Shown one piece after another: positions 1,451-60,200 of a DNA stretch of 64,000 bases. The stretch spans positions 32,539,073 to 32,603,072 of the forward strand of contig NC_081375.1 of NCBI RefSeq assembly GCF_030684315.1. The letters run 5' to 3'. The notes under the pieces were generated by a model. That model ran no database searches. It saw nothing but the letters and a program-made list of their open reading frames with translations, and was not told the origin of the DNA. Positions within the stretch are counted from its first letter, which is position 1. Each line of letters begins with the position of its first letter. The translations under genes were made by a program, and so were the position numbers. This DNA is from Stegostoma tigrinum (Eukaryota).

Positions 1451-1480
1451 CTGATGTTTCGGTCCTAGACCCTTCATCAG
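1451..1480 (-). ncRNA. Minimal hammerhead ribozyme motif (PLE-associated, variant)
   Basis: Minus strand CTGATGA-A-GGGTCTAGGACC-GAAACATCAG; one stem II mismatch and a CpG-type change. Confidence 0.55.
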
Positions 1481-2307
1481 AGAGGGGGATGGGGTGAGGG
1501 TTCTGGAATAAATAGGGAGAGAGGGGGAGGCGGACCGAAGATGGAGAGAAAAGAAGATAGGTGGAGAGAGTATAGGTGGGGAGGTAGGGAGGGGATAGGT
1601 CAGTCCAGGGAAGACGGACAGGTCAAGGAGGTGGGATGAGGTTAGTAGGTAGATGGGGGTGCGGCTTGGGGTGGGAGGGAGGGATGGGTGAGAGGAAGAA
1701 CAGGTTGGGGAGGCAGAGACAGGTTGGACTGGTTTTGGGATGCAGTGGGTGGAGGGGAAGAGCTGGGCTGGTTGTGTGGTGCAGTGGGGGGAGGGGACGA
1801 ACTGGGCTGGTTTAGGGACGCGGTGGGGGAAGGGGAGATTTTGAAACTGGTGAAGTCCACATTGATACCATTAGGCTGCAGGGTTCCCAGGCGGAATATG
1901 AGTTGCTGTTCCTGCAACCTTCGGGTGGCATCATTGTGGCACTGCAGGAGGCCCATGATGGACATGTCATCTAAAGAATGGGAGGGGGAGTGGAAATGGT
2001 TTGCGACTGGGAGGTGCAGTTGTTTGTTGCGAACTGAGCGGAGGTGTTCTGCAAAGCGGTCCCCAAGCCTCCGCTTGGTTTCCCCAATGTAGAGGAACTG
2101 TTCCTGCAACCTTCGGGTGGCATCACTGTGGCACTGCAGGAGGCCCATGATGGACATGTCATCTAAAGAATGGGAGGGGGAGTGGAAATGGTTTGCGACT
2201 GGGACCTCCCCACCTATACTCTCTCACCTATCTTCATTTCTCTCCATCTTCGGTCCGCCTCCCCCTCTCTCCCTATTTATTCCAGAACCCTCACCCCATC
2301 CCCCTCT

Positions 2308-2337
2308 CTGATGAAGGGTCTAGGCCTGAAACGTCAG
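2308..2337 (+). ncRNA. Minimal hammerhead ribozyme motif (PLE-associated)
   Basis: CTGATGA-A-GGGTCTAGGCCT-GAAACGTCAG. Confidence 0.65.
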
Positions 2338-3409
2338 CTTTTGTGCTCCTGAGATGCTGCTTGGCCTGCTGTCTTCATCCAGCCTCACATTTTATTATCT
2401 AGTATTAGATAGCATCAGCTTGAAGAAAAGCCAATGGATTATTCCTGATGTGCTAGTCTATGTTTATTTCTCAATCAACATTGCACAAATAGATCATTAT
2501 CACTTCATTGTACGTTTGTGTCGGCTGCTCATAAAATAGCTGCTATTTGCTATATAGCCAATAAAGTATTGTCATTGTTATAAGAGAAATGCAAGTCTTT
2601 CTTTGAAAGCCAAGCAGAGTATCCAGTACCATCTGTGGTACAGCAGGCCCGATCCAAAATGAAGCAATAATCAGATCAATGAAAGCAACATCCGTCAGCT
2701 GTTTATTTACATCATACAGGCACAGTAAGTGAGAGGCTCACCAGTAGTAGCAGAATTGGCATCAAGTGAGTGATTTTACAAGTCTTGGAGTTTGGTGTGC
2801 TGACAGATAATCGATTATAGATTTACAATTCCAGGTGCATTCTTGCAGATTGACATACATTTGTTTTGTTCTTAATGTATAATCTAGCAAATTGTTCTTT
2901 TTAAAATTTTAGAACTTTCTTCTCTGAAAATTTATTTGCAAGGTATACATACTTCTGTTTTGATTCCAAGACAAGGATTTGATATTGTGTGTAAGCGCAT
3001 GTATTTTATACATACACTATGTCAAACATCCACTAAGGATGAACTATGATTATCTCTTCAGTTCTCAATTTTTTTTACAGACTGTTAAAGTAGTTCTAAT
3101 TCACATGCTATTTTCAAGTGGACTCATGAAGTATGCCATCAGTTAAGGTGAAATTTGGTATTGACATCAAGGACGAACTCCAAGCTGCTCATGATTGGAG
3201 GCAGTCATAGATTTGTCTATGACTAACCTTTCTAAATCAGGAAAGTAACGATCTGACGTTGGAGTAGAGTTGTAAAGTACAGTCATATGGCTTCAGTATC
3301 AGTGTCCTCTGCTGACTGAGTGTAATTGTTGCAGAGTTGCAAATCATTGAAGTTCAGAAAAATTAGTCACAATCATTCATGCTAACAAGTTAAGAAGGCT
3401 GCTAAAAAG

Positions 3410-3995: not shown

Positions 3996-4112
3996 TATAT
4001 TGTATGGGGTCAGGCAAATAACTTCTCAAATCCCTGATGGATGCTGAAACTGTTCTAATTGCTAAACGATCTCCAGGGAGAAACGATATCTATTTTGGAA
4101 CCTCTGTGAAGA

Positions 4113-4435
4113 CTCATAGAATCCCTACAGTGTGAAAACAGGCCTTTTGGCCCAACAAGTCCGTACCAACCTTCAGAGCATTCCACCCAGAACCATCCCC
4201 CTATAACCCACTTCATCTACACATCCCTGAACACAACAGGCAATTTACCATGGCCAATCCACCTAGCGTGCACATCTTTGGACTGTGGGAAGAAACCAGA
4301 GCACCTGGAGGAAACCCATGCAGACATGAGGAGAATGTGCAAACTCCACACAGACAGTTGTCCAAGGCAGGAATTGAACCTGGGTCCCTGGCACTGTGAG
4401 GCAGCAGTGCTAACCACTGAGCTACCGTGCTGCCT
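4113..4435 (-). mobile_element. V-domain tRNA-derived SINE (HE1-like)
   Basis: Minus strand: tRNA-like head GGTAGCTCAGTGGTTAGCAC...GGTTCAATTCC, V-domain TGTGTGGAGTTTGCACATTCTC...CCCACAGTCCAAAGATGTG, CR1-like tail CTGTAGGGATTCTATGA. Confidence 0.9.
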
Positions 4436-4715
4436 GTAGTTAGTCTGGTGGACTTTCCACAACAGGCTTTGTCAGCAATTCTCTAGAGAATGACTTAGAG
4501 GAACCAAATTACTGTGACCCTTAATTGACTAACTTAGCTGATAACTTCTTCTGAATAACCTGAACTTTGCTTCTATGGTATTATTCAAAAAATTAATGTG
4601 AAGTAATTGATCATGGCTGTCCAAATTTCAAAATGAAGTCTTGCATCCTTACAAACACAGGAGGCCACAATTGCTGAAGTTGGAAAAATCTTTGTCAACC
4701 TGAATTCCTTCAACT

Positions 4716-4809
4716 TGTGCTCCTGAGATGCTGCTTAGCCTGCTGTGTTCATCCAGCCTCACATTTTATTATCTTGGAATTCTCCAGCATCTGCAGTTCC
4801 CATTATCTC
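4716..4809 (+). mobile_element. Very short PLE 3'-end insertion
   Basis: Matches the last ~95 nt of the PLE family; TSD TTCCTTCAACT at 4705-4715 and 4810-4820. Confidence 0.85.
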
Positions 4810-5087
4810 TTCCTTCAACTCCTGATGGTTAACTTAAACCTTTGACTCAACCTAATAATATTTTCAGCAATTATTTTGTGATAGATATATAATTTATAAA
4901 TTATGTGTCTTTTAATACAATTGCAAAATAGTTTTCAATTGTTATTTCTTTCAATTTTACCAGCTGATGAAAAAATCCGTTTATTGAAGCTTCACTACCA
5001 ATGTAGGTTATTTCCCATGGTGTCCAAATTAAGTCATATTGTCATCACCTCCTCAACTCACATTAATAATATTTAGGATGATTATCA

Positions 5088-5513
5088 CAGTGCTTCCCAA
5101 TTTTTTTTTGCTGTGGCCCATTTTAATTACAAATTTTGCATTACCTGGAGTGAACAATTGGAATTTGCGAGGTGTGAAAGCTGTTGAATTGGGGAAGTGA
5201 GGGGGTGTGGTGAATCAGCAACTCAGTGAGAAGGAGGTGAGATTCAGTTGCTGAGTGCTAGCAGCATCATTCAGGTGTGGAGTGAGGGGTGAGGGCGAGA
5301 CTGAGCATACTGGCAAGTATTTAATTGGCAGTATTCTTTTTAAAAAATGCCCACCCTATCTCAGCCTCTGTTGGATCAAACTCAACATCAAGAAAAAAAT
5401 CATAAGGGGTCAAAGAGGTTTTGCAGATGCTAAACTCAGCCTTCAGTTTGGTAGGCATTCAGACCTCACAACCCTTAAATCTTATCTCGCAACACCCAGT
5501 TTGGGAAGTCCTG
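5088..5513. mobile_element. Possible hAT/Charlie-type non-autonomous DNA transposon
   Basis: Imperfect terminal inverted repeats CAGTGCTTCCCAA ... TTGGGAAGTCCTG; no clean 8-bp TSD. Confidence 0.45.
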
Positions 5514-5678
5514 ATTTCAAAACTATTTGGTGCTTCAGGGTCCAATGGTTATTCTGAAAATTAGGCTAATTTAACTCTGCATTTGCCATTTTCCGATTTT
5601 ATCCTCCAGTTCATTGTGTGATTGTTGTCTCAAGACGTCATCCTTCAGTTAATGAAGTTGGCTTATACATTCCCATTA

Positions 5679-5795
5679 GGGTTCTTGTAGTGCAAAGATG
5701 GTATTCCTACCTTTGAGAAAGGTAACCTGAGGTCAAGTCCCATCATGGCCCCAGAAGTGTGTAATAATATCTCTGAGCAAGTTGATTAAAAAATG
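5679..5795 (+). mobile_element. Short (~120 bp) tRNA-derived SINE
   Basis: Similar to copies at ~31969-33215 (split by a PLE), 33258-33360 and 55027-55160; degenerate A/B-box head followed by CCAGAAGTGTGTAATAA. Confidence 0.6.
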
Positions 5796-6850
5796 TATGA
5801 ATTCCTATTCCCAGCATCACTTGAGGATTATACACCAACCGATGAGCATCATAAAATGGGATCCCAACTGTTCGCTCACCTAGAAGCACTAGATGAAGAA
5901 CTGAGAACAAGACAAATGCAAATGTCGTGAAGTTGTGATTCGGATTAATAGGTAGAGATTCCAATGTTCAGTTGCTGTAGCTACCAGGCCATGTGATACA
6001 CTTATATCGTTCTCCAAAATATACATCACTAAAAAGTTCAATCAAGCAAACAAATTAGTTCAATAACACACTTCATCGCATTCCAATTTTGAACATAGAG
6101 GGAAACAGCAGAAAATGTTAAGTGTATGAAAATGACATTTTTCACTCTGTTTTAAGTATTTTAAAATGTACCAGCTGTCTAAAATTAAAACAATGCAAAA
6201 ATTTTCAAACTGTAAAGGCTGCAGATACATTTTCATTTGCAGCATTTTAATTTAAGCCTGAGCAGTCAGAATCTGTTTATTGTGGTTGTGCTGACAAAGA
6301 TGAAGAAATCTGCATTTTCCTTGGGGGAATCTAATGTCCATTGCAGTCCTTATTAAATAGCATACAGGTTCGTTATTTCAACATCGTGGTGTATAATTCC
6401 TTTGAGGGAAATTCAAACTCCTATCTTGGAACCACTTTATTATGGCATCGTGCCAATCTGTCAACACTATTTCCCAATATTCATTTTTATTGCTTTTCTA
6501 TACCCCCTACAGGCTTCTACTAATTGACAGTACTCTACCAAGCTCATACCACAGCTGTATCACTGCGAAGGTACAGTTGGATAAGCAGAAATATGCTATG
6601 CATAGTGGGATGAACTCATTTGAAATTTGCATCAACTAAGATTGCTATTAGATAGGCACACGTATTCAGCTTCTGAAAATACAATGACAGTAAAATCTAA
6701 ACACTAGAATTTGCAATTGCATCTCTGAATTGTTTGTGTTGATGTTTAAAACCAACAAACCTAAGTATTTCAATCTGGGATAGTTTTCCCACAGGATATT
6801 GCCAAGCAAGCTGGGATCTAATGCGGCCTATTGTTTGGGGGTTTAATCAT

Positions 6851-7858
6851 GGACTGAATTTTCCCTAATTCTGATGAGATTCATGGCAGACAGTCTGCAT
6901 TGGCCCATGTTGACTTCTCATGTAATCTTCTGTGGTAAGCACAAAAAAGCAAACACCTTGAAAGCATTGTAACAACCTCCTGTTCACACAAACAACCAAA
7001 TGAGAGCCATCTTTGCATATCACTGAGGCCCAACATTTCCAGTTTAGGTTGAAATCTCTAATGCCAATTCAGGTCAAACCTAAGGTTGCCATTCAAATCT
7101 GAAAGCTTTTCAGCTTGTCAGGAGATTGCCGACCAAAGCAGCACAGTGTTAACCAGCAGTCAATGCACAGAATAGTGAAGGGGATTGGTACTGAAACCAT
7201 GCCCCTCTTTTACAGCAGCAGCTGCCAAACTCTATGGTTTAGGGTTTTAAAACCACTTTAACAGCATCCATGTAGATGATAAGTGTGTAAGGTAAGTGAG
7301 GACAATGTTAATTTGATTTGATCAGTTTCTGTTCTATTAGTTTCCATTAAAATACTTTTGGTTCTGTCAGTGCCCCACTGGGGCTTGTTAAACCCATAAA
7401 AGTTTGTTATTTTAAGAGTTGGAAGATAACTGAGGGATTAAGGTGCCACATTAATGAGGTTAGTATAGAGTGCCCATTTAGTGGAGGATACTACATACTA
7501 TGTGGGTCGGTGTTATGGATTGCCAGGCGAGGTCGAGGGAGAGTGTGGAAGTAGGGAATCAGGAGGTAGAGAAAGGAGGTTTATCAGAGTTGTGGCAAGT
7601 TGACCAATTTCTGCATTGTCAGACATTCTATATGGCCCCAAGTTGCAATCTCTGTCTATCCTGTCACTATGACCACATTCCTATCAGAAAATCTGGGTAA
7701 CAAAGATGGAGATTGATTTAACTTTACCATTGCAGTAGCTTTGCCTTTTATTTTTATGTAACTGGGAGATTCACCAAGACCATAAGTAAATAAATTTTGG
7801 GATTCAAGAGCAACTCAGATGGTCATAGATAACAGCAACCTGCAAGAAAATTCTGCCT
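6851..7858. mobile_element. Possible old non-autonomous DNA transposon (Harbinger-like ends)
   Basis: Ends GGACTGAATTTTCC and AGAAAATTCTGCCT are imperfect inverted repeats; interior non-coding. Confidence 0.3.
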
Positions 7859-7988
7859 GTAAATTGCATTAGAGGTGAAGGTCAGCAAGCAGTTCTCAAA
7901 ATATGTGTTTACACCAGATACAATACCAAGTGTTGTGTTATATCACACAGATAGTATGCAGTATATATTTAAGAAACAAACTCAGGAT

Positions 7989-8115
7989 TTTCTGAAGAAG
8001 AGTCCCGACCCAAAATATCAACTTTCCTGCTCTTCTGATGCTGCCTGGCCTGCTGTGATCCTCCAGCTCCACACTGTGTTATCGCTGGCTCCAGCACCAG
8101 CAGTTCTTACGACCT
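7989..8115 (+). mobile_element. Older PLE-subfamily 3' end with decayed hammerhead motif
   Basis: CTGAAGAAGAGTCCCGACCCAAAATATCAAC followed by the GATGCTGCCTGGCCTGCTGTG tail; TSD CTCAGGAT at 7981-7988 and 8116-8123. Confidence 0.75.
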
Positions 8116-8289
8116 CTCAGGATGTCATCACTATATCATAATGTGTGACCTGACAGTATAAATGCCTCAGTGTGTGCCTTAACTAAGGCCTCTTGAAGTG
8201 TAGCACATTGATTGAAATGTGCTGGTGTGGGCAACCAAGTAGCTCAGTATTAGCCCAGCCACTGAAGTGGCTGATGAACATCATCACCC

Positions 8290-9700
8290 ATGTCAAGTTT
8301 TAATGTTATTGAAACTTTATAGGGGTAAACCTCTTGATAAGATTGACTTTGAACCTAAAAGCTCATTGGAACATACATTAATGAACTAACTATGAACAAC
8401 AACATCCTTCTTCATTGACAGGTTTCGGGCAGTGCGTGGGGCATTGTCACAGTTCTCATGTCAACATATGAATTCCATCAGTTGCACAAAATTGGAAACA
8501 TTGCTGTTTGTGATCTGTGACAAAGTGTCACAGGAACAGAAACAACTTGAAGTATCATTGAGTGAAACAACTAATCCCCAGTGGTATTAAGCACAGTTAC
8601 CGTACCATGAAAATGGAACACTTCCACTCTATGATGACCATGAGTAAGTCAACAATGCAATCATTCTAGTCAAGTATCCACTTGCTACAATTCGAGAACT
8701 CTCAGCATATTTTTATGAATCCACAGTCTTTATCAAGCTCAAGATACAATGGAACTATATTCAGATACCGTTAGTGAAGTAAAGCCAATATCTTATAACT
8801 AACGTTACTCGTGAACATGTTTTAGTACTACAGAATGCTCTATGGATAAAGTTCAGCACCTAGATTTTATTTAGGCTTATCAGATGTGGAAAGGACTTTC
8901 AATCTATTCAACAACAGCATTTTCTATGAACATGACGAACTAGAACAAAGTTAACAGTTCTCAATGGTGCTCACTCAACTAACACAATACAATTTGACAC
9001 TCATCATGGACAAATGCAAATATGTATTGCGTCTTATCCATAAAGGACATCTAGGTGTTAAGATTAAACAAAAACCCAAGAAGCTGTTTGGTGGCCAGCT
9101 GCATTAGATCACCACATAGAAGAGTTAATTAGAGATTGCATAGCACGTACACTGTGCTAAACCATGTTCTGCACCTCTACAAATAACCTCAGGGCCAACA
9201 AAACCATGGCAACAACTAGATATTTTTGGCAAGCGGACACAGGCAAACAATGATTTTTTTTATTATTGTTGTTCATGTTCTGGATTGTGAATATTCAGAA
9301 TCATTATAATAAATCCCATGACCACCACTCTGGTTATTGATATTCTAGGCTAGTTCTTTACAAAATTGAATTTGCCTGACACTATCACTACAGACAGGGA
9401 TCACTGCTTATTTCTGGCCAGTTAATGAGTTTCTAGCATGCAATGGAATTTACCGTAATTATACATTACAATACAACTTGCCATTGATTGGCAGTATTTA
9501 ATGATCCAACAAGGTGGTCAAGGACAATCTGAGAGCTAGCATGTTAGAAGATAAAATGTTCAAATAATCCAGTCCTATCCAACTTTGTACATGCTAGTCC
9601 GTCCCACAGTCTCCAATTGGAAATCTCCAGCTCAATTTGTGATGGGTCAGAATTTGTAGGTGCCACATGCAATTCTTAAACCGTCACCACCATCAAACAA
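8290..9700 (+). mobile_element. Highly degenerate Gypsy-type pol (RNase H/integrase) remnant
   Basis: Short translated motifs VLRLIHKGHLGV (~9025-9060), LDHHIEELIRDCIA (~9103-9145) and LPDTITTDR (~9372) resemble the integrase zinc finger and core; many stops. Confidence 0.6.
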
Positions 9701-10962
9701 GAACATCAGAGCAAAAGCTGAAGAAACAGACAAAGTCATAAAGTGACAAGGCAATGACAAAACATATGTTGACAAGTGACTGTACACATAGAAATTGTAA
9801 TTTGAATTTGGAGACTGGGTTTGCATCAAACAAACTAACCTTGGCAACAGCCTTATATTATCTCTTATGGAGCTGCTCTCTGTGCTGTGTGGTATGTGTT
9901 AGTTAAGCCTGTGGATGTCCTTACAAAAGAAACTGAAACATGCAGCATGCCTGAGAAAGGAAACGTTTTAAAAGCATGTAATAACCTCCAGTTCACACAT
10001 AGAATCCAATGTGTCGTCTCTACATACATCTTATGCATGAAACTGTATAGGATCACTTGCATTCTTTTCTGTGTCTCACTTATTTCCCTTCTTTTATTGA
10101 TTTCTTCTTATATAATTTCCTTCCCCTTATGTTAGTTTATTTTTAGTTGTTTTTCATCAATATAAACATGATAGTTACAGCATGTAGATTTTGACAAAAT
10201 GATTACTGCATTGCTTGATAAATCAATTTCTATAGAACTATTTTTGTATCTGAGTAGAGAGTATGCACAACAGTCACATTGAATCTTTCTAACATATATC
10301 ACCAGAGTAACCTTAAATATGGATTGCTTCATATCGTTCATGCTTTCTTCCAGTCAAATTGCCTCTCACCTCACCTGACATATCATCTCATTAAGTTCTC
10401 AGACCATTATAAATGTACATTATCATTATCACCTATTCCTACGCACAAAGCGGGAATACTGATTATAAATTAGGCCATAAATGAAAGAATGGAAATGGGG
10501 AAAAACATGACTAAAATGATAATGTTATTTTGATAGCCTTTAGTGAGCCAGTACTCTCAGTGGAGCACTGAAAGCATCAGCTTTCTGTTTCCTTTCCTTG
10601 CTCTGTTTCATAAAACTGAAGAACAGTTCTTCAAATATGGTAATTCAGTACTGTATAAATTTTTTACTAGAAAAACATGATTTCCAATTGTATCATAGGT
10701 GACATGTACCATGTAAAGAGGTTGAATCAGACAATCAGCAATGTTGCATTTTCAACGAGACAAGCTGAGACGAATTCTGGCCTTTTCATAACAATCCTTT
10801 TGTGTACACTCCTTTGAACATATATAATTGCTGCCAGTACAGAATATAAATACTGCTAAAAGGGGATATGAAGTTCAAGCTTTTCATCTTGCACTCGTCA
10901 GGAATAAGCTGCAAAAAACAAACTTGCAAAATGTGACACCATGTTAGCAACAAGAAAAGCAG

Positions 10963-11880
10963 TTGCTAATCTGCTCCCACGATAAGACATTCCACTCCCG
11001 CACATCCCAGATGTCCAAGTTCTTCAAGGACCGCAACTTTCCCCCCACAGTGATCGAGAACGCCCTTGACCGCGTCTCCCGTATTTCCCGCAACACATCC
11101 CTCACACCCCGCCCCCGCCACAACCGCCCCAAGAGGATCCCCCTCGTTCTCACACACCACCCTACCAACCTCCGGATACAACGCATTATCCTCCGACACT
11201 TCCGCCATTTACAATCCGACCCCACCACCCAAGACATTTTTCCATCCCCTCCCCTGTCAGCTTTCCGGAGAGACCACTCTCTCCGTGACTCCCTTGTTCG
11301 CTCCACACTGCCCTCCAACCCCACCACACCCGGCACCTTCCCCTGCAACCGCAGGAAATGCTACACTTGTCCCCACACCTCCTCCCTCACCCCCATCCCA
11401 GGCCCCAAGATGACATTCCACATTAAGCAGATGTTCACCTGCACATCTGCCAATGTGGTATACTGCATCCACTGTACCCGGTGCGGCTTCCTCTACATTG
11501 GGGAAACCAAGCGGAGGCTTGGGGACCGCTTTGCAGAACACCTCCGCTCAGTCCGCAACAAACAACTGCACCTCCCAGTCGCAAACCATTTCCACTCCCC
11601 CTCCCATTCTCTAGAGGACATGTCCATCATGGGCCTCCTGCAGTGCCACAATGATGCCACCCGAAGGCTGCAGGAACAGCAACTCATATTCCGCCTGGGA
11701 ACCCTGCAGCCATATGGTATCAATGTGGACTTCACCAGTTTCAAAATCTCCCCTTCTCCTACTGCATCCCTAAACCAGCCCAGTTCGTCCCCTCCCCCCA
11801 CTGCACCACACAACCAGCCCAGCTCTTCCCCCCCACCCACTGCATCCCAAAACCAGTCCAACCTGTCTCTGCCTCCCTAA
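10963..11880 (+). pseudogene. 5'-truncated PLE ORF: RT C-terminal/linker region plus GIY-YIG endonuclease
   Basis: Linker CNRRKCYTC, NVVYCIHCTRCGFLYIGET (GIY-YIG with CxxC), RFAEH, VANHF, RRLQEQQLIFRLGTL..GIN; no RT core and no true ATG start. Confidence 0.9.
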
Positions 11881-12196
11881 CCGGTTCTTCCTCTCACCCA
11901 TCCCTTCCTCCCACCCCAAGCCGCACCCCCAGCTACCTACTAACCTCATCCCACCTCCTTGACCTGTCCGTCTTCCCTGGACTGACCTATCCCCTCCCTA
12001 CCTCCCCACCTACACTCTCTCCACCTATCTTCTTTACTCTCCATCTTCGGTCCGCCTCCCCCTCTCTCCCTATTTATTCCAGTTCCCTCTCCCCATCCCC
12101 CTCTCTGATGAAGGGTCTAGGCCCGAAACGTCAGCTTTTGTGCTCCTGAGATGCTGCTTGGCCTGCTGTGTTCATCCAGCCTCACATTTTATTATC
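10971..12196 (+). mobile_element. Young Penelope-like element (Neptune type), 5'-truncated
   Basis: Uninterrupted ORF remnant to the stop at 11880, pyrimidine-rich 3' UTR, HHR motif; short TSD TGCTAAT at 10964-10970 and 12197-12203. Confidence 0.93.
12105..12134 (+). ncRNA. Minimal hammerhead ribozyme motif (PLE-associated)
   Basis: CTGATGA-A-GGGTC-TA-GGCCC-GAAACGTC-AG; conserved core boxes, stem II, palindromic ACGT in place of stem III. Confidence 0.75.
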
Positions 12197-13069
12197 TGCT
12201 AATTTGTTGGGCCATCATTGGCAGATGGATGCAGCAAGGCCAGCTAACTGTCAATCTTAATTCTCAAACCAAGCAGGTAGATTCTGATTAGTCAGGATAT
12301 TGCCTCAGAATACAGCAGAAAATTGATTGTCTCTGTAACTCTACTTATATCAAAAAGGTGCACGATTATTTCTAGGAGCTTATATGTAGCCACAAAAATG
12401 GGAGGTTAGGGATTAGGTGAGTAAATTACTTCCTGCCTGCCTTTCCACCATTCATAAGTCAGAATGTGCTGAAATATTTTCCACATTCTTGGTTAACCGC
12501 AGTTCCAACAATACTTAATGAGTTTGAGACCATTCAGGACATAATAACATACTTGAATCAGACTCCATTCAACATTAAACAATTTCCCCTAATTTCACAG
12601 GTGAAATTTCTGGCTTCACTTGTCAGAACTTGGGTCTCTTAATCCAGAAGCCTCCATCTAATAGAAATAGTTTCTTCATGCCCGCTGTATCTTTTCACCT
12701 CAATATTTTGCAAATTTCTGTCAAATCTCTTTTAAACTTTTTAAATTCAAGGAAATAAAAACCTAATTTGTTTAATCTCTATGCAAGACTTAACATTTGG
12801 CGTTCAAAGCACATTTGGGTAATATATATCATGCTTCTGTTAGAGCCAACATATCCCTTCGAAGGTACAGTAACCAGGACAGCTCACAGATTTCCTGGTG
12901 TGAGCTGACTTGGGCTTTTGTATAACTGAAGAATGTCTACTTATATATTTTATTCCTTGAGATATAAAGCACATTGACAATTTTTCCTTGTTTTCTGTAC
13001 CTGAACTACAACAACTCGCCAACACTTCTTGAACAGTAATTTCCAAATTCAGAACTTCTTTCATCTGGA

Positions 13070-16120: not shown

Positions 16121-16465
16121 ACCCATCCCTTCCTCCCATCTCAAGCCGCACCTCCATTTCCTACCTACTAACCTCATCCCACCTCCTTGACCTGTCCATC
16201 TTCCCAGGACTGATCTATCCCCTCCCTACCTCCCCACATATACTCTCCTCTCCACCTATCTTCTTTTCTCTCCATCTTCGGTCCGCCTCCCCCTCTCTCC
16301 CTATTGATTCCAGAACCCTCACCCCATCCCCCTCTCTGATGAAGGGTCTAGGCCCGAAACGTCAGCTTTTGTGCTCCTGAGATGCTGCTTGGCCTGCTGT
16401 GTTCATCCAGCTTCACATTTTATTATCTTGGATTCTCCAGCATCTGCAGTTCTTGTTATCTCTGA
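16121..16465 (+). mobile_element. PLE 3' UTR fragment with hammerhead motif
   Basis: Close match to 11895-12196 plus the terminal segment. Confidence 0.9.
16336..16365 (+). ncRNA. Minimal hammerhead ribozyme motif (PLE-associated)
   Basis: CTGATGAAGGGTCTAGGCCCGAAACGTCAG. Confidence 0.75.
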
Positions 16466-16769: not shown

Positions 16770-17150
16770 AATTTCCTTATTTATTTGTCCAAGTGATGTG
16801 ATTATAGCTGGCTAGGCCAGCACTTATTGGCCATCCCTAAATGCCATAGAGATGGTATTGGTGAGCTGCCTTCTTGAACAATTACAATCCTTAGGGTGGA
16901 GGTAGACCTACAATAGCATTAGGAAGTAAGTTCCAGGATTGTGACCCAATAAAAGTGAAGGAATGACACTATATTTCCAAATCAAGATGGTGTATGTCTT
17001 GGACAGGAATTTGCAGGTGGTGGTATCCCAACGTTTCTGCTGTCTTTGTCCTTCTGAGATAGAGTGTTTGAAAGATCAAAGTGTGAGTTGATGCACTGCA
17101 TCTTGTAACCAGTACACATGGGCTGTCAATGTGCATTAGTGGCTTACTCA
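16770..17150 (-). mobile_element. CR1/L2-group LINE 3' end (second family)
   Basis: Plus strand GGCCAGCACTTATTGGCCATCCCTAA...GGTGAGCTGCCTTCTTGAAC is the reverse complement of the family tail. Confidence 0.8.
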
Positions 17151-22680: not shown

Positions 22681-23862
22681 AGTGATCGAGAACGTCCTTG
22701 ACCGTGTCTCCCGTATTTCCCGCAACACATCCCTCACATCCCGCCCCCGCCACAACCGCCCAAAGAGGATCCCCCTCATTCTCACACACCACCCTACCAA
22801 CCTCCGGATACAATGCATCATCCTCCGACACTTCCGCCATTTACAATCCGACCCCACCACCCAAGACATTTTTCCATCCCCACACCTGTCTGCTTTCCGG
22901 AGAGACCACTCTCTCCGTGACTCCCTTGTTCGCTCCACACTGCCCTCCAACCCCACCACACCCGGCACCTTCCCCTGCAACCGCAGGAAATGCTACACTT
23001 GCCCCCACACCTCCTCCCTCACCCCTATCCCAGGCCCCAAGATGACATTCCACATTAAGCAGAGGTTCACCTGCACATCTGCCAATGTGGTATACTGCAT
23101 CCACTGTACCCGGTGTGGCTTCCTCTACATTGGGGAAACCAAGCGGAGGCTTGGAGACCGCTTTGCAGAACACCTCCGAACAGTTCGCAACAAACAACTG
23201 CACCTCCCAGTCGCAAACCATTTCCACTCCCCCTCCCATTCTTTAGATGACATGTCCATCATGGGTCTCCTGCAGTGCCACAATGATGCCACCCGAAGGT
23301 TGCAGGAACAGCAACTCATATTCCGCCTGGGAACCCTGCAGCCTAATGGTATCAATGTGGACTTCACCAGTTTCAAAATCTCCCCATCCGCAACTGCATC
23401 CCTAAACCAGCCCAGTTCGTCCCCTCCCCCAACTGCACCACACAACCAGCCCAGCTCTTCCCCCCCACCCACTGCATCCCAAAACCAGTCCAACCTGTCT
23501 CTGCCTCCCTAACCGGTTCTTCCTCTCACCCATCCCTTCCTCCCACCCCAAGCCGCACCCCCATCTACATACTAACCTCATCCCACCTCCTTGACCTGTC
23601 CGTCTTCCCTGGACTGACCTATCCCCTCCCTACCTCCCCACCTATACTCTCCTCTCCACCTATCTTCTTTACTCTCCATCTTCGGTCCGCCTCCCCCTCT
23701 CTCCCTATTTATTCCAGTTTCCTCTCCCCATCCCCCTCTCTGATGAAGGGTCTAGGCCCGAAATGTCAGCTTTTGTGCTCCTGAGATGCTGCTGGGCCTG
23801 CTGTGTTCATCCAGCTTCACACTTTATTATCTTGGAATTCTCCAGCATCTGCAGTTCCCATT
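22681..23862 (+). mobile_element. Young Penelope-like element (Neptune type), 5'-truncated
   Basis: 276-aa GIY-YIG ORF remnant 22682..23512, nearly identical to the 10.9 kb copy; TSD ATCC(C/G)TTATATTTGC at 22666-22680 and 23863-23877. Confidence 0.93.
23740..23769 (+). ncRNA. Minimal hammerhead ribozyme motif (variant GAAATGTC)
   Basis: CTGATGAAGGGTCTAGGCCCGAAATGTCAG. Confidence 0.6.
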
Positions 23863-32042: not shown

Positions 32043-32072
32043 CTGACGTTTCGGGCCTAGACCCTTCATCAG
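32043..32072 (-). ncRNA. Minimal hammerhead ribozyme motif
   Basis: Reverse complement of CTGATGAAGGGTCTAGGCCCGAAACGTCAG. Confidence 0.75.
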
Positions 32073-33017: not shown

Positions 33018-33047
33018 CTGATGAAGGGTCTAGGCCCGAAACGTCAG
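33018..33047 (+). ncRNA. Minimal hammerhead ribozyme motif
   Basis: CTGATGAAGGGTCTAGGCCCGAAACGTCAG. Confidence 0.75.
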
Positions 33048-35502: not shown

Positions 35503-35667
35503 GATAAGAGATAATGGGAACTGCAGATGCTGGACAATCCGAGATAACAAAGTGTGGAGCTGGATGAACACAGCAGGCCAAGCAGCATCTCAGGAGCACA
35601 AAAGCTGACGTTTCGGGCCTAGGCTCCTAAGATGCTGCTTGGCCTGCTGTGTTCATCCAGCGCCACA
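35503..35667. mobile_element. Short PLE fold-back insertion
   Basis: Minus arm ends inside HHR stem II (…TTTCGGGCCTAG), then a plus arm; TSD CTTCAGCAATC(T/A)CAAA at 35487-35502 and 35668-35683. Confidence 0.85.
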
Positions 35668-36299
35668 CTTCAGCAATCACAAAATCGGGTCCTGGAACCA
35701 TATGAGGAATTTTCTGCTTTTTGAGTTCTCTGCCTGAAGATCTCCATGGTGGATAGGGCAAGGTAGCATGTCCTGAGGCAACACCAACAGAAACTGGAGT
35801 CAAGCCCAATGCTGTTGACAATAATCTGATCTAAACTGGTGGTCCAGTCATCTCAATGTAACAACCTTTCATGTAATCAACTTCCTGTGGCAACATAGAC
35901 TTCCACCTACATGTTGTAGTCCTGGAACTGGGAATAGTAATGGTAGTGACTCCAATTACTCATTCATTACATGACTTACCAGGAACGTCTCCAGCTTTGA
36001 CCATCGGCCACTGGACGAATTTAGAAGTTGATACTCAATCCACTGAACCATGCAATTTTTAGGCTGAGTGTAGGTTGCAACAGAATTTATTTTTTGGAGG
36101 ACTCCTCGCCATAAGGGCTATCAGGTCTTTTTACTCTATCTTATCAAACTCATCTCATGAACTACCACCCCACTTCCAATTCTAACCTAATCTTACTGTA
36201 CATCATTCACGGAACAACTTGTCGATGCTAGGATATCTCAGAATTAGTTAGCATCTTGTGCTCCCACATCTTTTTCAAAAGACTGTTGAGCACCTGGAC

Positions 36300-37289: not shown

Positions 37290-37629
37290 CATCCCACCTC
37301 CTTGACCTGTCCGTCCTCATCCCACCTCCTTGACCTGTCCGTCCTCATCCCACCTCCTTGACCTGTCCGTCTTCCCTGGACTGACCTATCCCCTCCCTAC
37401 CTCCCCACCTACACCCTCTCCACCTATCTTCTTTGCTCTCCATCTTCGGTCCGCCTCCCCCTCTCTCCCTATTTATTCCAGTTCCCTCTTCCCATCCCCC
37501 TCTCTGATGAAGGGTCTAGGCCCGAAACGTCAGCTTTTGTGCTCCTGAGATGCTGCTTGGCCTGCTGTGTTCATCCAGCCTCACATTTTATCATCTTGGA
37601 ATCTCCAGCATCTGCAGTTTCCATTATCT
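37290..37629 (+). mobile_element. PLE 3' UTR insertion with 28-bp tandem triplication at its 5' junction
   Basis: (TCATCCCACCTCCTTGACCTGTCCGTCC)x3 at 37289-37371; TSD CTGCCCAGGAT at 37279-37289 and 37630-37640. Confidence 0.9.
37504..37533 (+). ncRNA. Minimal hammerhead ribozyme motif
   Basis: CTGATGAAGGGTCTAGGCCCGAAACGTCAG. Confidence 0.75.
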
Positions 37630-39617: not shown

Positions 39618-39773
39618 GCCACCTGAAAGAACTGCAGATACTGCAAATCAGGAACAAAAGCAGAAGTTGCTGGCAAAGCTTAACTGGTCTGAGCCCTGAG
39701 GAAGGGTCACCAGACCCAAAACGTTAATTCTGATTTCTTTTCTTCACAGATGCTGCCAGACCTGCTGAGCTTT
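39618..39773. mobile_element. Older PLE-family fold-back insertion with HHR variant (39696-39727)
   Basis: CTGAGGAA-GGGTC-ACCA-GACCC-AAAACGTTAA; inverted arms; degenerate TSD CCCAAAATA(G/A)GG(C/T)ATA. Confidence 0.7.
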
Positions 39774-39844
39774 CCCAAAATAAGGTATATAAAGTGGGGC
39801 TGAGGAAGAAGGGCCAATCCTTGCAGGTGACACTCCTCATCATG

Positions 39845-40051
39845 GATAACACAGTGAGGAACTGGAGGAAAACAGCAGGCCAGGCAGCAGAGGACCAGGA
39901 AAGTTGATGATTCAGATCGGGAGCTGATTTCCAAAGAAGGGTCTCGACCCGAAACGTCAGCTTTCCTGCCCTCTGATGCTGCCTGGCCTGCTGTGTTCTT
40001 CCAGTTCAACACTGTGTTAACTGTGACTCCAGCATCTGCAGTTCTTACTAT
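39845..40051. mobile_element. Older PLE-subfamily fold-back insertion with HHR variant (39931-39960)
   Basis: AAGAA-GGGTC-TC-GACCC-GAAACGTCAG; inverted arms; TSD CTCATCATG at 39836-39844 and 40052-40060. Confidence 0.75.
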
Positions 40052-41864: not shown

Positions 41865-42302
41865 ATATATAACAAAGTGTGGAGCTGGATGAATACAGAA
41901 GGCTAAGCAGCATCTTAGGAGCATAAAAGCTGACGTTTCAGGCCTAGACCCTTCATCAGAAAAGGGGGATGGGGAGAGGGTTCTGAAATAATTAGCGAGA
42001 GAGGAGGAGGTGAATTGAAGATGGATAGAGGAGAGGATAGGTGGAGAGGAGGCAGACAAGTGAAGGAGGCAGGGATGGAGCCAGTAGAGGTGAGTGTCGG
42101 TGGGAAAGTAGGGAGGGGATAGGTCAGTCCAGGGAGGATGGACAGGTCAAGTGGGTGGGATGAGGTTAGTAGGTAGGAGATGGGGGTCCGAAACGACAGC
42201 TTTTATGCTCCTAAGATGCTGCTTGGCCTGCTGTGTTCATTCAGCTCCACACTTTGTTATCTCAGATTCTCTAGCATCTGCAGTTCCCATTATCTCTGAT
42301 GC
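41865..42302. mobile_element. PLE fold-back insertion (diverged subfamily); HHR motif on minus at 41930-41959
   Basis: Minus arm ~41869-42187; plus arm starts in the HHR (CCGAAACGACAGC); TSD AATCAAATCAA at 41854-41864 and 42303-42313. Confidence 0.85.
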
Positions 42303-42787: not shown

Positions 42788-43100
42788 TAGAATCCCTACA
42801 GTATGGAAATGGGCTATTCAGCCCAACACATCCACATCACCCCTCTGAAGAGCATCCCACCCAGACCCATTCTCCCACGTCTGTATTTCCCATTCCTAAC
42901 ACACACATCCCTGGGCACTATAGCATGGCCCATCCACCTACTCTGCACAGCTTTGGACTGTGGAAGGAAACCAGAGCACCCAGAGAAAACCCACACAGAC
43001 ACAGGAGAATGTGCAAACTCCACACTTGCCCAAGGCTGGAATTGAACCTGGGTCCCTGGTGCTGTGAGCCAGCAGTGCTAACCACTGAGCCACCGCGCCA
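42788..43100 (-). mobile_element. V-domain SINE (HE1-like)
   Basis: Head GGCGCGGTGGCTCAGTGGTTAGCAC...GGTTCAATTCC, V domain and tail on minus. Confidence 0.9.
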
Positions 43101-43991
43101 GCCCTTCCATAAATGTAAAAGCAATTCCTATTTGCTCCAAATCCACCAAGAAAACTACTCTTTGCCTGATCAGCTTTAACCACTTACATATCTGAAGGTA
43201 CTCAGTTTCTCATTTTCTGTCAAATCAATTGCACAGGTTCAATTTAAACTGATAGCCGTGCATTTCAACAAGTATCCATGGCACAATGTTAAAATTGATT
43301 CTGTTGGCAGCATGCCATTGGGAATCATGACGGCCTTTAATTTGCCACCATTTTACTTCCCAACTTTCATCCCGTCATCAGGAAGTTGGTGTTTCACATT
43401 CTGCACAATTTAGCAATCCCACCATTTTGTTTTCTAGTCAATGAGTTTCACTAGATTATGCCCAATATAGCGCTCACCTCAGAGTTAAAAGACTATGAAA
43501 ATATACAACCACTTCTAGATTTAAGCACATAATCTAGTCCAACAGTCCATTATAGCAGAGGAGCTGTCTTCGAAGATAAAGTAAGTCAAGGCATTGTCTC
43601 AAGTAACTATCAATTTAAAAATGTAATTAAACCAGGAATGTTGACAAAACTATCTCAAATTAATTAAATAATTCACAGGGAATGGGTCATTCATTTAACA
43701 GATATTAATCTGGAATTCATAAGAGGTGGAGTGGGACCTAAGATTATCCCTGCCAGTCGGTACATGCATTCCTCAGCTCCCGCCCACATTCAGCCACTCT
43801 TGTAGAGATGAAGTTGGGCTAGCAGGACATCGCTGCCACAGGGTAGGTGTCCTACAGTTTGTTACGGGCTCAATTGAGCCCAGTTCAAGGAGATCCACAG
43901 AGATGCCTCTGAGTCCATTTAGTTCTGGTCTGTCATTAATAAGGGCCTGAGCACACACTATTGGAACAGTCAGGACCTCCCCAGCGCATAC

Positions 43992-44159: not shown

Positions 44160-44830
44160 TATCTGTCCCTAGTTACCCTTGAGATGGTGGTGGTGAGCTG
44201 CCTTCTTGAATCACTGCGGTCCTCATACGTAGTTTAACCCACAGTGTTATTAGGGAGGAGCTTTCAGGATTGTAACCCAGTGGCAGTGAAGGAATGGGGA
44301 TGTATTTCTAAGTCAGGATGGCGAGTGCCTTGGAGAGGAACTTGCAGCTGGTGTTCCCATGTATCTCCTGCCCTTGTCCTTTGTAATGGAAGTGGTCATG
44401 GGTTTGGAAAGTGCTGTCTAAGGATGTCTGGTGAATTTCTGCTCTGCATCTTGTAGGTAGTAGACACTGCTGCTACTGAGCATCAATGGTGGAGGGAGTG
44501 GATGCTTGCGGATGTGGTGCCAATCAAGCGGGCTGCCTCGTCCTGGATAGGGTCAAGCTTCATGAATGTTGTTGGAGCTGTACTACCCAGGCAAGTGAGG
44601 AGTATTCCGTCACACTCCTGATATGTGCCTTGTAGGCATTGGACAGATTTTGGGGAATCAGGAGGCGAGTTACTCAATGTATCATTCCTAGCTTATGACC
44701 TGATCTTGCAGCCTCTGTGCTTATGAAGTGCGTCCAGCTGATTTTTCTGGTCAATGGTAACCCCAAGGATATTGATAGTGGAGGTTTCAGTGATGTTAAC
44801 ATCTAACAGTGGTTAGATTGCCTCTTTAGT
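44160..44830 (-). mobile_element. CR1/L2-group LINE 3' portion (second family)
   Basis: ORF 44483..44677 APTTFMKLDPIQDEAARLIG; family tail truncated at the FBF1-like junction. Confidence 0.88.
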
Positions 44831-50786: not shown

Positions 50787-50979
50787 CACATTTGGCAGCA
50801 TTTGTGAAGAAAAATTAGAGTTAACATTTCAGGTCCACTGTTCCTTCCTCAGAAGGTCACCGGACCCGAAACATTAACTCTGACTTTTTTTTAATAATGC
50901 TGTCAAACCTGCTGAGCTTTTTGAACAATTTCTGTCTTTATTCCCGATTTACAGCATCTGCAGTTCTTTTGGTTTTTAT
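50787..50979. mobile_element. Older PLE-family fold-back insertion centred on the HHR
   Basis: AGAGTTAACATTTCAGGTCC...GGACCCGAAACATTAACTCT inverted arms; TSD ACCAAGTATCA at 50776-50786 and 50980-50990. Confidence 0.8.
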
Positions 50980-53290: not shown

Positions 53291-53404
53291 ATTGGAATCT
53301 CGGTTCATTATAGGGAAAATAAGATTCTGCTCAAAGTATATTGCAAGAGATGAACATTTCATTAGGCTGCTCTCTCCGCTGGCCCTTTTCTATTCTCTTC
53401 GGGT

Positions 53405-54032
53405 TGTAACAATACTATGGCATTAAGAAGTGTACTTTGACGTTTTTTTTTAAAATGAAGAAAAGTGCTGAGTAGTCTGCTCCAATGTCAATAAACTAAA
53501 CAGCTTGTGAGGTCATAGGGACTTTTTTTAAAAAGTTGGAATAAGAGAAGCAGCCTGAATAAGTCGGATCAAGGTTCCATGGAACCAGGAGTTTTAGTTT
53601 TAGGTTTTCAGTAGCAGTCACTGCTGGGGTCTTAAAGCTGGATGTAGAAGTTGTTTTTCTTCTCTCTGTTACAGCTAAAAGCTGGGGTTTCTCTTCCTCC
53701 TGCTATAATCACATGTGAGGCTATCTGTTTTACTGTATTTGCCTTTGCCAAGGATGTGTTTATGGGATGTTGCTATATTGGAACAGTTGCAGTTTAGTAG
53801 TTAAATAATCCATTGTTTTGTTAAGTTTTCCATTAGAGTTAAGTAATTCTTTCTTTTGTTGTATTTTAACTAAAGTGTTGGAATAAAGTATGTTTTGCTT
53901 CAAGACTGTTAGTCTGGCCAATCAAATTGCATCTGGAATGCAATGCCTGGCACTTGCCATTAAAATAAGAAAAAGTTAGGGTCCAGGCTATCCTCCCAAT
54001 ATTTTGTGAGGGGGCTTGGTCTGGTCCTCTCA
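53405..54032 (+). mobile_element. Solo LTR (628 bp)
   Basis: TG...CA ends; perfect 4-bp TSD GGGT at 53401-53404 and 54033-54036; internal AATAAA (53882); homologous to 22111-23954. Confidence 0.9.
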
Positions 54033-56948: not shown

Positions 56949-58341
56949 AAATGCATGCAAGTAAGGTAGATACCACTTAATGGTGAGATTCTAAAGTCAC
57001 CATTTAAGATTTGCTGGGAAAATTGAGAAAAAACCTCAACATTGGAGATTCTGATGTTTTCCTTCTCTCTGTATTTTTCCACCTGAACTGCCAATTGTCA
57101 CCCCACACTAGGTGGGGGAAAATTCCACCCAATGAGTTTTTCTCAGTGCAGTTTTCAACATGAAGAAAGAGAAAGACAAAATGCCAGGAATGATTCAGAT
57201 ACAAGTTAACAAAATTATAAATGAACATCAGAAAACAGTATTTATTTATGTGAATTAGAGGAAACGAAGGATTCTATTGCAATGAATGAGAAGACACATC
57301 CTAAAGAAGCATTTAAAAGTTATTGAAAATAATGCTTCAACAGATAATAGATTTTAAATTTTAAAATTAAACAGTCTATAAAAACTGCAGGGAAAGCTAT
57401 GGGTAACTGCATTATATCACAGTTTAAAACATAATTAAGATAAATAACTCTGTGCATGACCTGGTTTTCAGTTGTAAATGCTAAGTACAACGGTGTGCAG
57501 AGAAACATGCACTTATACATCCTTGAAAGTATACTGATCTTTTTTCAAGAAGGGATCAGCCTCAGACATGTCAAACAGATTTTCAAAATCTCTCAGTGAT
57601 GTAATTTTTTTCCTAGGCCAATGATCAGGCTGATTTTCTGGAATTGGTGTAAAAATCAACAGGTCTAATTCACTGTAAACATTTCACTGCGATCAGATTA
57701 AGTCCACCCTCACATTTTACTCTGCCTTGGTGCATTGCCATGTGCTCTCTAGTCTAGTTTGTGCCTATTTCTGAGACCTCATGAAAGTTGCAGAAGCTGA
57801 CAGGAAATAATACTGTAAGATTTGGTAAGCTGGGGAAATTTAAAGAAATGTACCTTTTTTGTTAAATAATTTCAGAAATTTAAATAAAGCAACTAAAACA
57901 CTTAAAAGTTATGCCAAATTTCCAAGACAAGAAAAATTACATTTAGATATATGATTAATCACAATAAATTGAAACATATCTACCTAGCAACAAAGTTAAA
58001 GCAATTATTGGCCATACCACTAATTTTCCCAAATGCATGGGAAAGCAACAGTATTCTTTGAAGCACAGGCTGTATATACACTAACCATGGAAACAGCCTG
58101 ATTACTTTGTAAGAATTATTATTGATAACAACAGGTACAAACACCGTGCAAAACTGAAGAAATCACACAAAGTATTTATTCAAGCATTTTTGCAGCAATT
58201 CATCAACTTCATGCTATGAAATAAAACAAAAGGTGCATTTATTTGTGCTTAATGTAAAACTTTGACCACATTAAAGCCTGATGTTAACTGCATCAGATTG
58301 CTCTAAACTCCAAGACACAGAATAGGCTGATCTGAGCTGGT

Positions 58342-58488
58342 AATAAAATGTGAGGCTGGATGAACACAGCAGGCCAAGCAGCATCTCAGGAGCTTTTGTG
58401 CTCCTGAGATGCTGCTTGGCCTGCTGTGTTCATCCAGCCTCACATTTTATTATCTTGGAATCTCCAGCATCTGCAGTTCCCATTATCT
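58342..58488. mobile_element. Minimal PLE hairpin insertion
   Basis: Perfect 53-bp inverted repeat 58341-58393 / 58400-58452 with loop TTTTGT; TSD CTGATCTGAGCTGGT at 58327-58341 and 58489-58503. Confidence 0.93.
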
Positions 58489-59449
58489 CTGATCTGAGCT
58501 GGTTGCAACTTTTCAGGTCCAGGCAACCAACAGCAAATATTCAAATTACCACACCCTGGCAATTTGGCATGCAGGCATGATAAAAGTAAAGCAGTGAGCA
58601 GATATTTATCCCAGCGGACTTTCACACTGCAGAACACATTGAAAGCCTAGGATTTGTTATTTACTCGATCATTCTTTCACATCCACCTGTTGTTCCAATC
58701 AAATTGTGCGCAGTGTAACAATGAGTGGATAATACTCTCACATTAAATGTAACAGAAAATCTTTGCCTCTATCTTAAAATGATGCTGCTGGGCCAAGAAT
58801 AGTGCTTTTTTTTTGTATAGTTTGCTTGCACCTCCTATGCCGACATTATTGCTTTTATTTTCAGGAGGCAATTTGAAAACAACGCACATTGAATGTTCTG
58901 CACTTAACAGTTTCAACCCTTCCATGCAATCAGCTGTCGGAATTTTGTAATGTACAGTATACTACTTTCATATCCTGCATGAGCAATACTTTAGTATTTT
59001 CATGGTGAGATTGTAATTTCTATCATTGAACTTGCTGGTTATTATATTTTGATTAATGTTACCATTGCAAAGGAAATTAAAGAATATTTTCCAATGTCAG
59101 GTGACTACAATGTTTCAAATACAAAGTTTATAACATTGTTATGTTCTGGGACAACAATTTCCGGTAAAATAGAGGAATGAAAAGGCAACTCCTATAAATT
59201 CTACCCTCCAACAATCTTGGGTGGTTGATTTTAAAGGTTAAAGGGTGAACAGGAGGCTGACAAATGGGAAATATGTGACACCTGGTTTAAAACTTAGAGC
59301 CGCTAGCAGCTTGACTGTTAAACATAATGAATTACATGAATAATCTAATTAAGAAGTAGCAAGTCAGGGGAGAGAGTAAATTGGGGAGATGATGTAATTA
59401 AGGAACCAGCTTGTCAAATAAACATCCGGAATTACGTACATTGACTGCT

Positions 59450-60200
59450 TAAACATTGTATAGGAGCAAGAATGTCTTGCTACAGTTATACAGAACTTTG
59501 GTGAGGCCACACCTCAAGTAGTTTTGGTTTCCTTATGTGAGGAAGGATGTTCTTACTATGGAAGGAGTATAGCAAAGTTTTATCAGACTGATTCCTCAGA
59601 CGGCAGGACTGGCATATGAGGAGATGTTGAATTGGTTAGGATTATATTTGCTGTAGTTCAGAAAAATAAAGGGGGGGGGAATCTCATGTAAACGATTAAA
59701 CATCTAACAAGACTACACAGGGTAGATGCAAGTAGGTTGTTCCCAATTACAGCAGAGTCCAAAACCACAGGTCACAGTCTAAGCATATGATGTAAACTAT
59801 TTAGGACTGAGATGAGGACCAATTTCTTCACCCAGAGTGATGAGCCGCAGAATTTATATAACTGAAAGCAGTAGAGGCCAAAACGTTGTATGATTTCAAC
59901 AGGGAGTTGCATAAAGCACTCAGAGCTAAAGGAACAAAAGGATATGGGAGAAAAGTGGGGTAACAAAGTGTGAAGCTGGATGAACGCAGCAGTCCAAGCA
60001 GCATCTCAGGAGCACAAAAGCTGACGTTTCAGGCCCTTCATCAGTGAGGGGGATGGGAAGATGGTTCTGAAATAAATAGGGAGAGGGGGGGAGGCGGAGA
60101 AAAGTCTGGGAACAGGTTATTGAGTGATCAGTCATGATCATAATGAATAGCGAACCGGGCTCAAAAAGTAAAACAGCCTACTCCTGCTCCTATTTTCTCA
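59450..60200 (+). mobile_element. CR1 LINE 3' fragment, interrupted by a PLE piece
   Basis: LLQLYRTLVRPHL motif; tail CCTACTCCTGCTCCTATTTTCT. Confidence 0.85.
59960..60095 (-). mobile_element. PLE 3' UTR fragment with stem-II-deleted HHR (60021-60044)
   Basis: Minus strand CTGATGAAGGGCCTGAAACGTCAG; TSD GGAGAAAAGT at 59947-59956 and 60096-60105. Confidence 0.85.

Follow-up and report, generated by a model that had tools for sequence, protein, structure and literature searches.

Here we ask whether a small ribozyme motif that recurs through a 64,000-nucleotide stretch of the Stegostoma tigrinum genome (contig NC_081375.1; the whole stretch is hereafter the window) cuts RNA in living cells. The motif lies in the pseudo-long terminal repeat (pLTR) of a Penelope-like element (PLE), and a preliminary description of the window, made from the letters alone, had read it as a minimal type I hammerhead ribozyme. 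The motif likely does cut in living cells, as is suggested by shortened copies of the element whose starts lie at the predicted cut or 32 bases before it, where a capped start is likely. We favor, with moderate confidence, the reading that a minimal type I hammerhead in the pLTR cuts a minority of element RNAs in vivo, with the cut falling after GUC and 32 nt downstream of a likely capped start that lies 4 nt before the ribozyme core. The motif itself is of a known kind, the PLE minimal hammerhead; the new part is its footprint in genomic 5’ ends, of which we found no published report in a search that covered little of the subscription literature. The activity and role of PLE hammerheads in vivo were “still a mystery” in 2020 (PMC7761336), and the founding survey, in the portions consulted, offers no in vivo evidence (Cervera and de la Pena, 2014, PMC4209133).

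Is the motif a hammerhead? Counting C17 of GUC as position 0, the next A as +1 (window 12133) and the C of CUGA as -27, the exact reference copy (12105..12134, + strand) consists of the core CUGAUGA (12105-12111), an extra A (12112), stem II (12113-12124) and a 3’ half (12125..12134) with GAAA at 12125-12128, the palindromic ACGU at 12128-12131 and C17 at 12132; the predicted cut falls before 12133, and helix I joins 12103-12104 with 12133-12134. The core CUGANGA and the GAAA that flank helix II are present, together with NUH at the cut, and the proposals of a minimal type I hammerhead, a palindromic ACGU and a cut after GUC all fit the published PLE family (PMC4209133). That family is defined by the core, a nucleotide that separates positions 9 and 10.1, a G10.1-C11.1 pair, a 15.2-16.2 palindrome and a short helix I (PMC4209133). 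Two caveats in the preliminary description, an extra A after the core and a stem I of about 2 bp, fare differently: the extra A, found in 181/184 copies of motif family A, is a defining trait of the PLE family, and the 2-bp helix I, unlike the usual 4-5 bp of PLE minimal hammerheads, has precedent in D. virilis (2 bp) but is a short extreme (PMC4209133). In family A the 10.1-11.1 pair is G-C in 164/184 copies and G-T in 17, the palindrome reads CGTC in 126/184, with the rest mostly CpG decays, and there is no helix III loop. Stem II had been drawn with 5 bp and a 2-nt loop, which ViennaRNA rejected; 4 bp with a CUAG loop is more realistic.

Four motif families (A-D) occur in the DNA examined, and the palindromic ACGU is the commonest form in each. 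Families A and B have a helix I of 2 bp, C one of 4 and D one of 3, with compensatory changes between families: the helix strands read CU/AG in A, UU/AG or UU/AA in B, AGUU/AACU in C and UCA/UGA in D. Families A-C have U-A at pair 1, which in D is A-U with both sides changed, and pair 2 runs C-G, U-G, U-A and C-G across the families; within family A, pair 1 is kept in 81/81 copies that have the family's upstream sequence, and pair 2 is C-G in 76 of them. Stem II differs in both sequence and length in family D and is still paired, and the pairs of helices I and II covary across the four families. The motifs of B and C lie behind diverged endonucleases of their own (loci L136 and L201), the linkage of family D to a PLE is weaker (L074 and L059), and B-like variants occur in contigs of two other organisms. 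As separate observations, stem II (12113-12124) is nearly palindromic (fully so in some copies of family B) and a possible second dimerization site that is not conserved in C; elsewhere in the genome (G000:C1:2722793-2722881) two exact motifs form a direct tandem at a distance of 59 nt, a close dimer layout that occurs naturally.

The carrier is a Penelope-like retrotransposon. Open reading frame (ORF) remnants in the window encode a GIY-YIG domain; the reference motif belongs to a 5’-truncated copy with a pLTR-like 3’ part (11022..12197, +), whose ORF remnant (open frame 10948-11880) has a zinc linker and GIY-YIG. A long copy from the genome search (L086) has a 1,054-aa open frame matching RVT_1 (E 2.6e-5) and GIY-YIG (E 0.004), both under the Pfam curated cut-offs, with DKG and YIDD motifs and a CX4CxxC linker at residues 877-885. 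A CX2-5CxxC linker between reverse transcriptase (RT) and endonuclease (EN) is a mark common to the Neptune and Nematis clades (PMC8557442), and the L086 linker fits the Neptune (or Nematis) type; the closest named homologues are Chiloscyllium punctatum proteins, at 77% and 74%. Another copy, L087, comprises an inverted truncated copy, an upstream pLTR, the ORF and a downstream pLTR, with motifs at 5622 and 2045, 3,577 nt apart, that flank the ORF; the motif sits in both pLTRs of this tandem copy, and hence also upstream of the ORF. The AUGs that follow -31 in L087 open frames of 13 aa (at -24, within the core), 27 aa (+19) and 95 aa (+139), and because the 95-aa frame enters sequence matching the L086 N-terminus in another frame, this copy is read as frameshifted there. 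The PLE identity first proposed is borne out by the ORF with RT and GIY-YIG, the pLTR layout of L087, and partial tandem and inverted insertions with a 30-40 nt tail: this is a young, very abundant EN+ Penelope-like element with a single ORF holding RT, zinc linker and C-terminal GIY-YIG. In the 3.2-Gb genome (G000, the source of all genome-wide exact counts) the exact 30-mer occurs 45,079 + 45,237 = 90,316 times, with 0 for a reversed-pattern control; a structure-aware scan (core, extra nucleotide, paired stem II, GAAA-YRT-H) gave 137 matches in 1.29 Mb of partly selected loci, and 1 in the reversed sequence. Extrapolation from an unselected sample (88 family A arms in 1,014 kb) puts family A at about 280,000-330,000 arms genome-wide.

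Where do the shortened copies begin? Of the 88 unselected arms, 37 begin upstream of -36 and 36 within -36..-15; no arm begins at -14..0, 3 do so at +1, 8 at +2..+12 and 4 later, a profile with two edges, each followed by a downstream tail; a set of 71 bystander arms used below overlaps with these 88. Genome-wide 5’ ends, counted exactly from a shared downstream anchor with three mismatching bases required before the start, number 162 at -1, 449 at 0, 3,043 at +1 and 394 at +2. Real junctions, as opposed to internal mutations, made up 29 of 30 loci at +1, 24 of 30 at 0, 29 of 30 at +2 and 28 of 30 at -1, and in 8/30 of the position-0 class the C could be supplied by the inverted partner. Palindromic head-to-head joins occur at 727 loci for AGCT at +1, 53 for ACGT at -4 (CpG decay allowed) and 24 for GGCC at +28. 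The first 100 listed +1 rows comprise 63 perfect AGCT palindromic joins, 10 joins with 3-nt microhomology and 27 unambiguous starts, the last extrapolating to about 820 genome-wide. In selected loci, +1 is also where tandem joins fall. In contigs of one DNA run (X10), where 11 of 97 letters-between rows were tallied, 5 rows lie at +1 and 3 at -31, all three of the latter ending in G; these junctions are not independent, because the run is possibly the assembly's own source.

Head-to-tail joins were also observed (L128, L130, L131, L156 and L158), in which one copy stops at +46..+248 and the copy after it begins at +1 (or 0), as from template jumping after run-off and a possible route to new pLTRs. 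A splice-acceptor reading of the same bases (branch-like CTCTGAT, CAG at 0..+2) was rejected, there being no pyrimidine tract between the two, earlier AGs, and no common upstream exon in the junctions; an apparent family D 5’ peak at -53 proved to be an artifact of a truncated exemplar.

The other 5’ peak, of 7,002 copies genome-wide, lies at -31 and carries an extra G that the +1 peak is without. The base before -31 is G in 83/100 listed rows, in 46/63 after rows with a partner-explainable prefix are dropped, and in 8/11 purely genomic junctions (among 30 loci), as against 7/27 unambiguous starts at +1 (Fisher p=5e-5 for +1 versus -31). The 52 arms that begin within -30..-34 include 22 at -31, with G in 20/22, compared with 4/8 at -30 and 3/9 at -32; the prefix and G tallies at +1, -31 and -30..-34 were made by hand from listings. 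The extra G at -31 is as a reverse-transcribed cap would leave it, and -31 is likely a capped transcription start by analogy with L1, in which full-length 5’ junctions carry an additional G that reflects the mRNA cap (PMC11702581). Families B and C likewise have 5’ ends concentrated a few bases ahead of the core, with 15/45 at -36..-31 in C; the family B end map is contaminated by family A copies, and the family B search pattern was too loose. In the window, -31 corresponds to 12101 (+), in a pyrimidine run 4 nt before the core, a putative start carried over from other copies of the family, as the 12105 copy reads through. This pyrimidine run presumably fits the TCT initiator consensus. TCT is a described initiator motif (PMC8461331), and D. 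virilis Penelope has an internal promoter within its pLTR (PMC2377424).

The 3’ ends are similarly ordered, falling at +58..72 from the predicted cut in 36/88 unselected arms and at +94..108 in 42/88. Among 123 head-to-head pairs, 108 of them classifiable, 104/108 consist of one short-tail and one long-tail arm. The preliminary description had placed the motif at a fixed position near the element's 3’ end, and this stands in that both 3’-end classes keep a constant offset from the predicted cut, but not for the copy at 32043(-), which ends early, at +31. PAc, a Poseidon element from Anolis carolinensis, carries a 30-40 nt tail downstream of its hammerhead, with an internal RT start site on each side of the tail, and extension takes place on both strands (Frangieh et al., 2024, PMC11167929). 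The two classes here match both the paired start sites and the both-strand extension of PAc, and by this analogy we infer that the classes at about +65 and +101 are internal RT start sites; in the reference copy the interval from +1 to the first of these putative sites, at +65, spans 12133..12197 (+).

Several further features of the element ends deserve mention. An ATTATC-like motif lies just before both 3’-end classes (window 12191-12197 and 33132-33141; family-wide), and a predicted multibranch hairpin, closed by AGAUGCUG/CAGCAUCU, separates the two classes, making the motif and hairpin region a candidate RT-binding and start signal. Family C has part of the downstream sequence, and family D has two end classes of its own, at about +42 and +77. 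Target-site duplications were found in 64/123 inverted pairs, with lengths in these pairs inflated by included element bases; by eye they measure about 9-14 bp in the window. The arms of an inverted pair share their 5’-end class in 18/24 unselected pairs, as though one RNA, or RNAs processed together, had served for both.

Under the favored reading, Pol II would start at -31 inside the pLTR. Because such a transcript starts 4 nt before the core, helix I of the upstream copy could have no more than 4 bp, which would explain its 2-4 bp length. The PLE protein would prime both nicked strands, with reverse transcription starting internally at about +65 and +101, and RT would run off the RNA 5’ end, leaving an extra G where that end is the cap and no G where it is the ribozyme cut. 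After run-off, up to about 15-20 nt would be trimmed away and head-to-head joining or template jumping would follow, and reading through an uncut downstream copy would give the long arms. That cut templates are a minority is suggested by the short arms, 15/51 of which start at +1 or later in the unselected sample. Cleavage would probably be protein-assisted, by analogy with PAc, and/or dimer-dependent via ACGU, such help being invoked because the free monomer is predicted to misfold. Dimer cleavage of PLE minimal hammerheads was reportedly observed by Lunse et al. in 2017. Insertion would not need cleavage, as in PAc, where the ribozyme is dispensable (PMC11167929). A cut in the upstream copy would cost the RNA its cap and first upstream AUG and so switch translation off; cutting of the upstream and of the downstream copy are indistinguishable here, because both give the same +1 ends.

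Several observations weigh against cleavage in vivo, or against the hammerhead itself. A covariance-model check, suggested in the preliminary description, did not recover the motif, with no hammerhead among 12 Rfam matches at E<=5; the mir-3150 and isrG matches in that search were rejected as head-to-head junctions of the element. The best predicted monomer fold pairs CUGAUG with CGUCAG, at -11.4 kcal/mol versus -3.6 kcal/mol for a hammerhead-like fold, and this modeled hairpin, which ends at +2, could itself stall RT; the best RNAcofold dimer is a stem II duplex, with no hammerhead. The 63/100 palindromic rows at +1 are ambiguous, since any symmetric break at +1..+5 fits them, and the genome-wide counts cover -1..+2. 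In the unselected sample 73/88 arms read through the cut, and just 3 arms (2 loci) begin at +1 and 2 (1 locus) at -31. The older families have no +1 start, with C at 0/45 and D at 0/15 in diverged copies with fuzzy ends, and the G before the equivalent family C start, at 41/100, or 24/83 after partner-explainable prefixes are dropped, did not replicate. RNA-seq of PAc gave no reads at the cut (PMC11167929), whereas here genomic 5’ ends peak there. Conservation of the core beyond its flanks, to which the preliminary description had also looked, is apparent across families, with 13/13 core positions identical in all six family pairs versus 4-14/20 upstream and 4-16/20 downstream in ungapped flanks, but this excess is partly circular, being built into the search, because the families were found by their core. 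A less circular test found the core within 700 nt downstream of 9/15 endonuclease matches of <82% identity (control 1%), about five of the nine core-bearing matches being damaged family A copies. Within family A the core is conserved no better than its flanks, which is uninformative because neutral decay after insertion is expected.

The main rival would make of the motif a real PLE hammerhead relic that does not cleave in vivo: RT would stall at the alternative hairpin (-27 to +2), which together with microhomology joining at AGCT would give the +1 peak. That hairpin is the predicted monomer fold, 73/100 listed +1 rows are favored by palindrome or microhomology, the +1 peak is absent in families C and D, and PAc insertion works without the ribozyme (PMC11167929). 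Against this, a palindrome of equal length 5 nt upstream has 14-fold fewer joins and one downstream 30-fold fewer, and the unambiguous +1 starts (about 820) exceed all starts at +2 (394). A stall predicts ends at +3, and there are none at +3..+5 among the 88 unselected or 71 bystander arms; tandem joins land on +1, and selection on the fold is indicated by the covariation between families. We consider this rival unlikely. A second alternative bears on -31, where RT might stall at the C-rich tract and add untemplated bases while the transcript starts elsewhere. The scatter of 5’ ends over -36..-15 and the absence of the G signature on replication in family C would suit such a stall; the confinement of G to one position (20/22 at -31 versus 4/8 and 3/9 beside it, and 7/27 at +1) and the clustering of family B and C ends a few bases before their cores would not, and we regard it as quite improbable. 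Very improbable, finally, is the model of Cervera and de la Pena in which two copies in a tandem transcript excise a unit RNA that circularizes as the main template: there are tandem copies whose two motifs lie one unit apart (L087), ACGU is the commonest palindrome in all four families, and re-ligation would restore the motif, fitting the copies that read through the cut, but none of the 88 unselected arms extends past +115, with one tandem junction from +221 in the same set, the tandem joins observed lead from +46..+248, not from 0, to +1, and the model is disfavored because the commonest short class starts at the G-marked -31, which needs a linear capped template.

How does a PLE hammerhead that cuts a minority of linear capped RNAs, the reading we retain, compare with known systems? 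With metazoan PLE minimal hammerheads it has in common the type I core, extra nucleotide, G10.1-C11.1, palindrome and lack of a helix III loop, as well as the pLTR location, mostly dispersed truncated copies and opposite-strand pairs (PMC4209133). The 90,316 identical copies here contrast with about 4,000-9,000 variable motifs in coelacanth and Xenopus, and no shark is named in the portions of that survey and its supplements examined (PMC4209133). Unlike PAc, the element has a CX2-5CxxC linker of the Neptune/Nematis type, and its long ORF begins well downstream of the motif. As with the 5’ hepatitis delta virus (HDV)-like ribozymes of R2 and other LINEs (long interspersed nuclear elements), as well as with L1, genomic 5’ junctions keep a record of the RNA 5’ end, with snap-back and template-jump junctions (PMC11371274, PMC11702581); the R2 ribozyme frees its element from a host co-transcript, whereas the element described here likely starts its own capped RNA 32 nt upstream of the cut, and a minority of templates appears to be cut. 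Non-LTR retrozymes have type I hammerheads related to those of PLE pLTRs and occur in the one chondrichthyan sampled (bioRxiv 10.64898/2026.07.22.740005). They are tandem arrays, in contrast to the dispersed or head-to-head fragments of a coding PLE seen here, and membership among them was rejected, as a tandem-repeat scan of the window shows no motif array.

Within the window, the motif is present at 10/10 of the coordinates first listed, 5 of them exact. Besides the reference copy, exact motifs lie at 16336..16365 (+; copy 16121-16465, ending at +102), at 37504..37533 (+; copy 37343-37632, ending at +101) and in both arms of an inverted pair, at 32043..32072 (-; left arm 32014-32545, ending at +31) and 33018..33047 (+; right arm 32547-33148, ending at +102). 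In a second inverted pair, the long-tail arm 1353-2204 (ending at +100) has a motif with 2 substitutions at 1451..1480 (-), and the short-tail arm 2204-2400 (ending at +65) one with 1 substitution at 2308..2337 (+). The motif at 23740..23769 (+) has 1 substitution, with CpG decay in ACGU, in a copy (22682-23865) that keeps a GIY-YIG remnant; that at 41930..41959 (-) is of an older subfamily, with 1 substitution and helix I UU/AG, on an arm (41869-42190) head-to-head with 42185-42300(+); and that at 60021..60044 (-) is decayed, a 6-nt deletion having taken most of stem II.

The original list missed the truncated arms at 35504-35670, 58341-58493, 4715-4810 and 42185-42300, and overlooked related families at 7992, 39696, 39931, 50852(-) and 52883. 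The insertion at 58341..58493 is a head-to-head mini-insertion without a core, whose + arm may start at +1 (58391; 3-nt microhomology) and ends at +103, whose - arm starts at +10 and ends at +62, and whose flanking direct repeat measures about 9-12 bp. Another head-to-head mini-insertion (35504..35670) has arms -15..+103 (-) and +10..+57 (+), and a solo mini-copy (4715..4810, +) spans +6..+100, without a core and with a flanking direct repeat of about 9 bp. A decayed family B motif lies at 39931..39960 (+), with further B copies at 7992 and 52883, and a family C motif with the downstream part at 39696..39780 (+), with a second C pair near 50790-50925. Other repeats in the window include a 320-bp repeat resembling a short interspersed nuclear element, in several copies (4114-4434, 34823-35143, 42787-43106 and others) with no tRNA call; fragments that are likely LINE 3’ parts (16807-17053, 38482-38624, 44166-44803 and 27681-28195); and a 550-bp repeat beginning TGT-ACAA, of LTR-like look, in two diverged copies (22110-22671 and 53404-53948).

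Taken as a whole, the family amounts to a fossil primer-extension experiment that predicts, at base level, where the RNA should start (-31) and be cut (+1) and where RT should start (about +65 and +101), and the junction count is applicable to any genome with a young PLE. A more specific idea, which we put forward tentatively, is that the hammerhead may be a self-decapping switch: Pol II would start on the first bases of helix I, the element protein would trigger the cut, and the cap and 32-nt leader would be lost, the short helix I of PLEs being set by the start site. If this is true, thousands of genomic junctions would record the cut in vivo, and the start site would set helix I in PLE minimal hammerheads generally.

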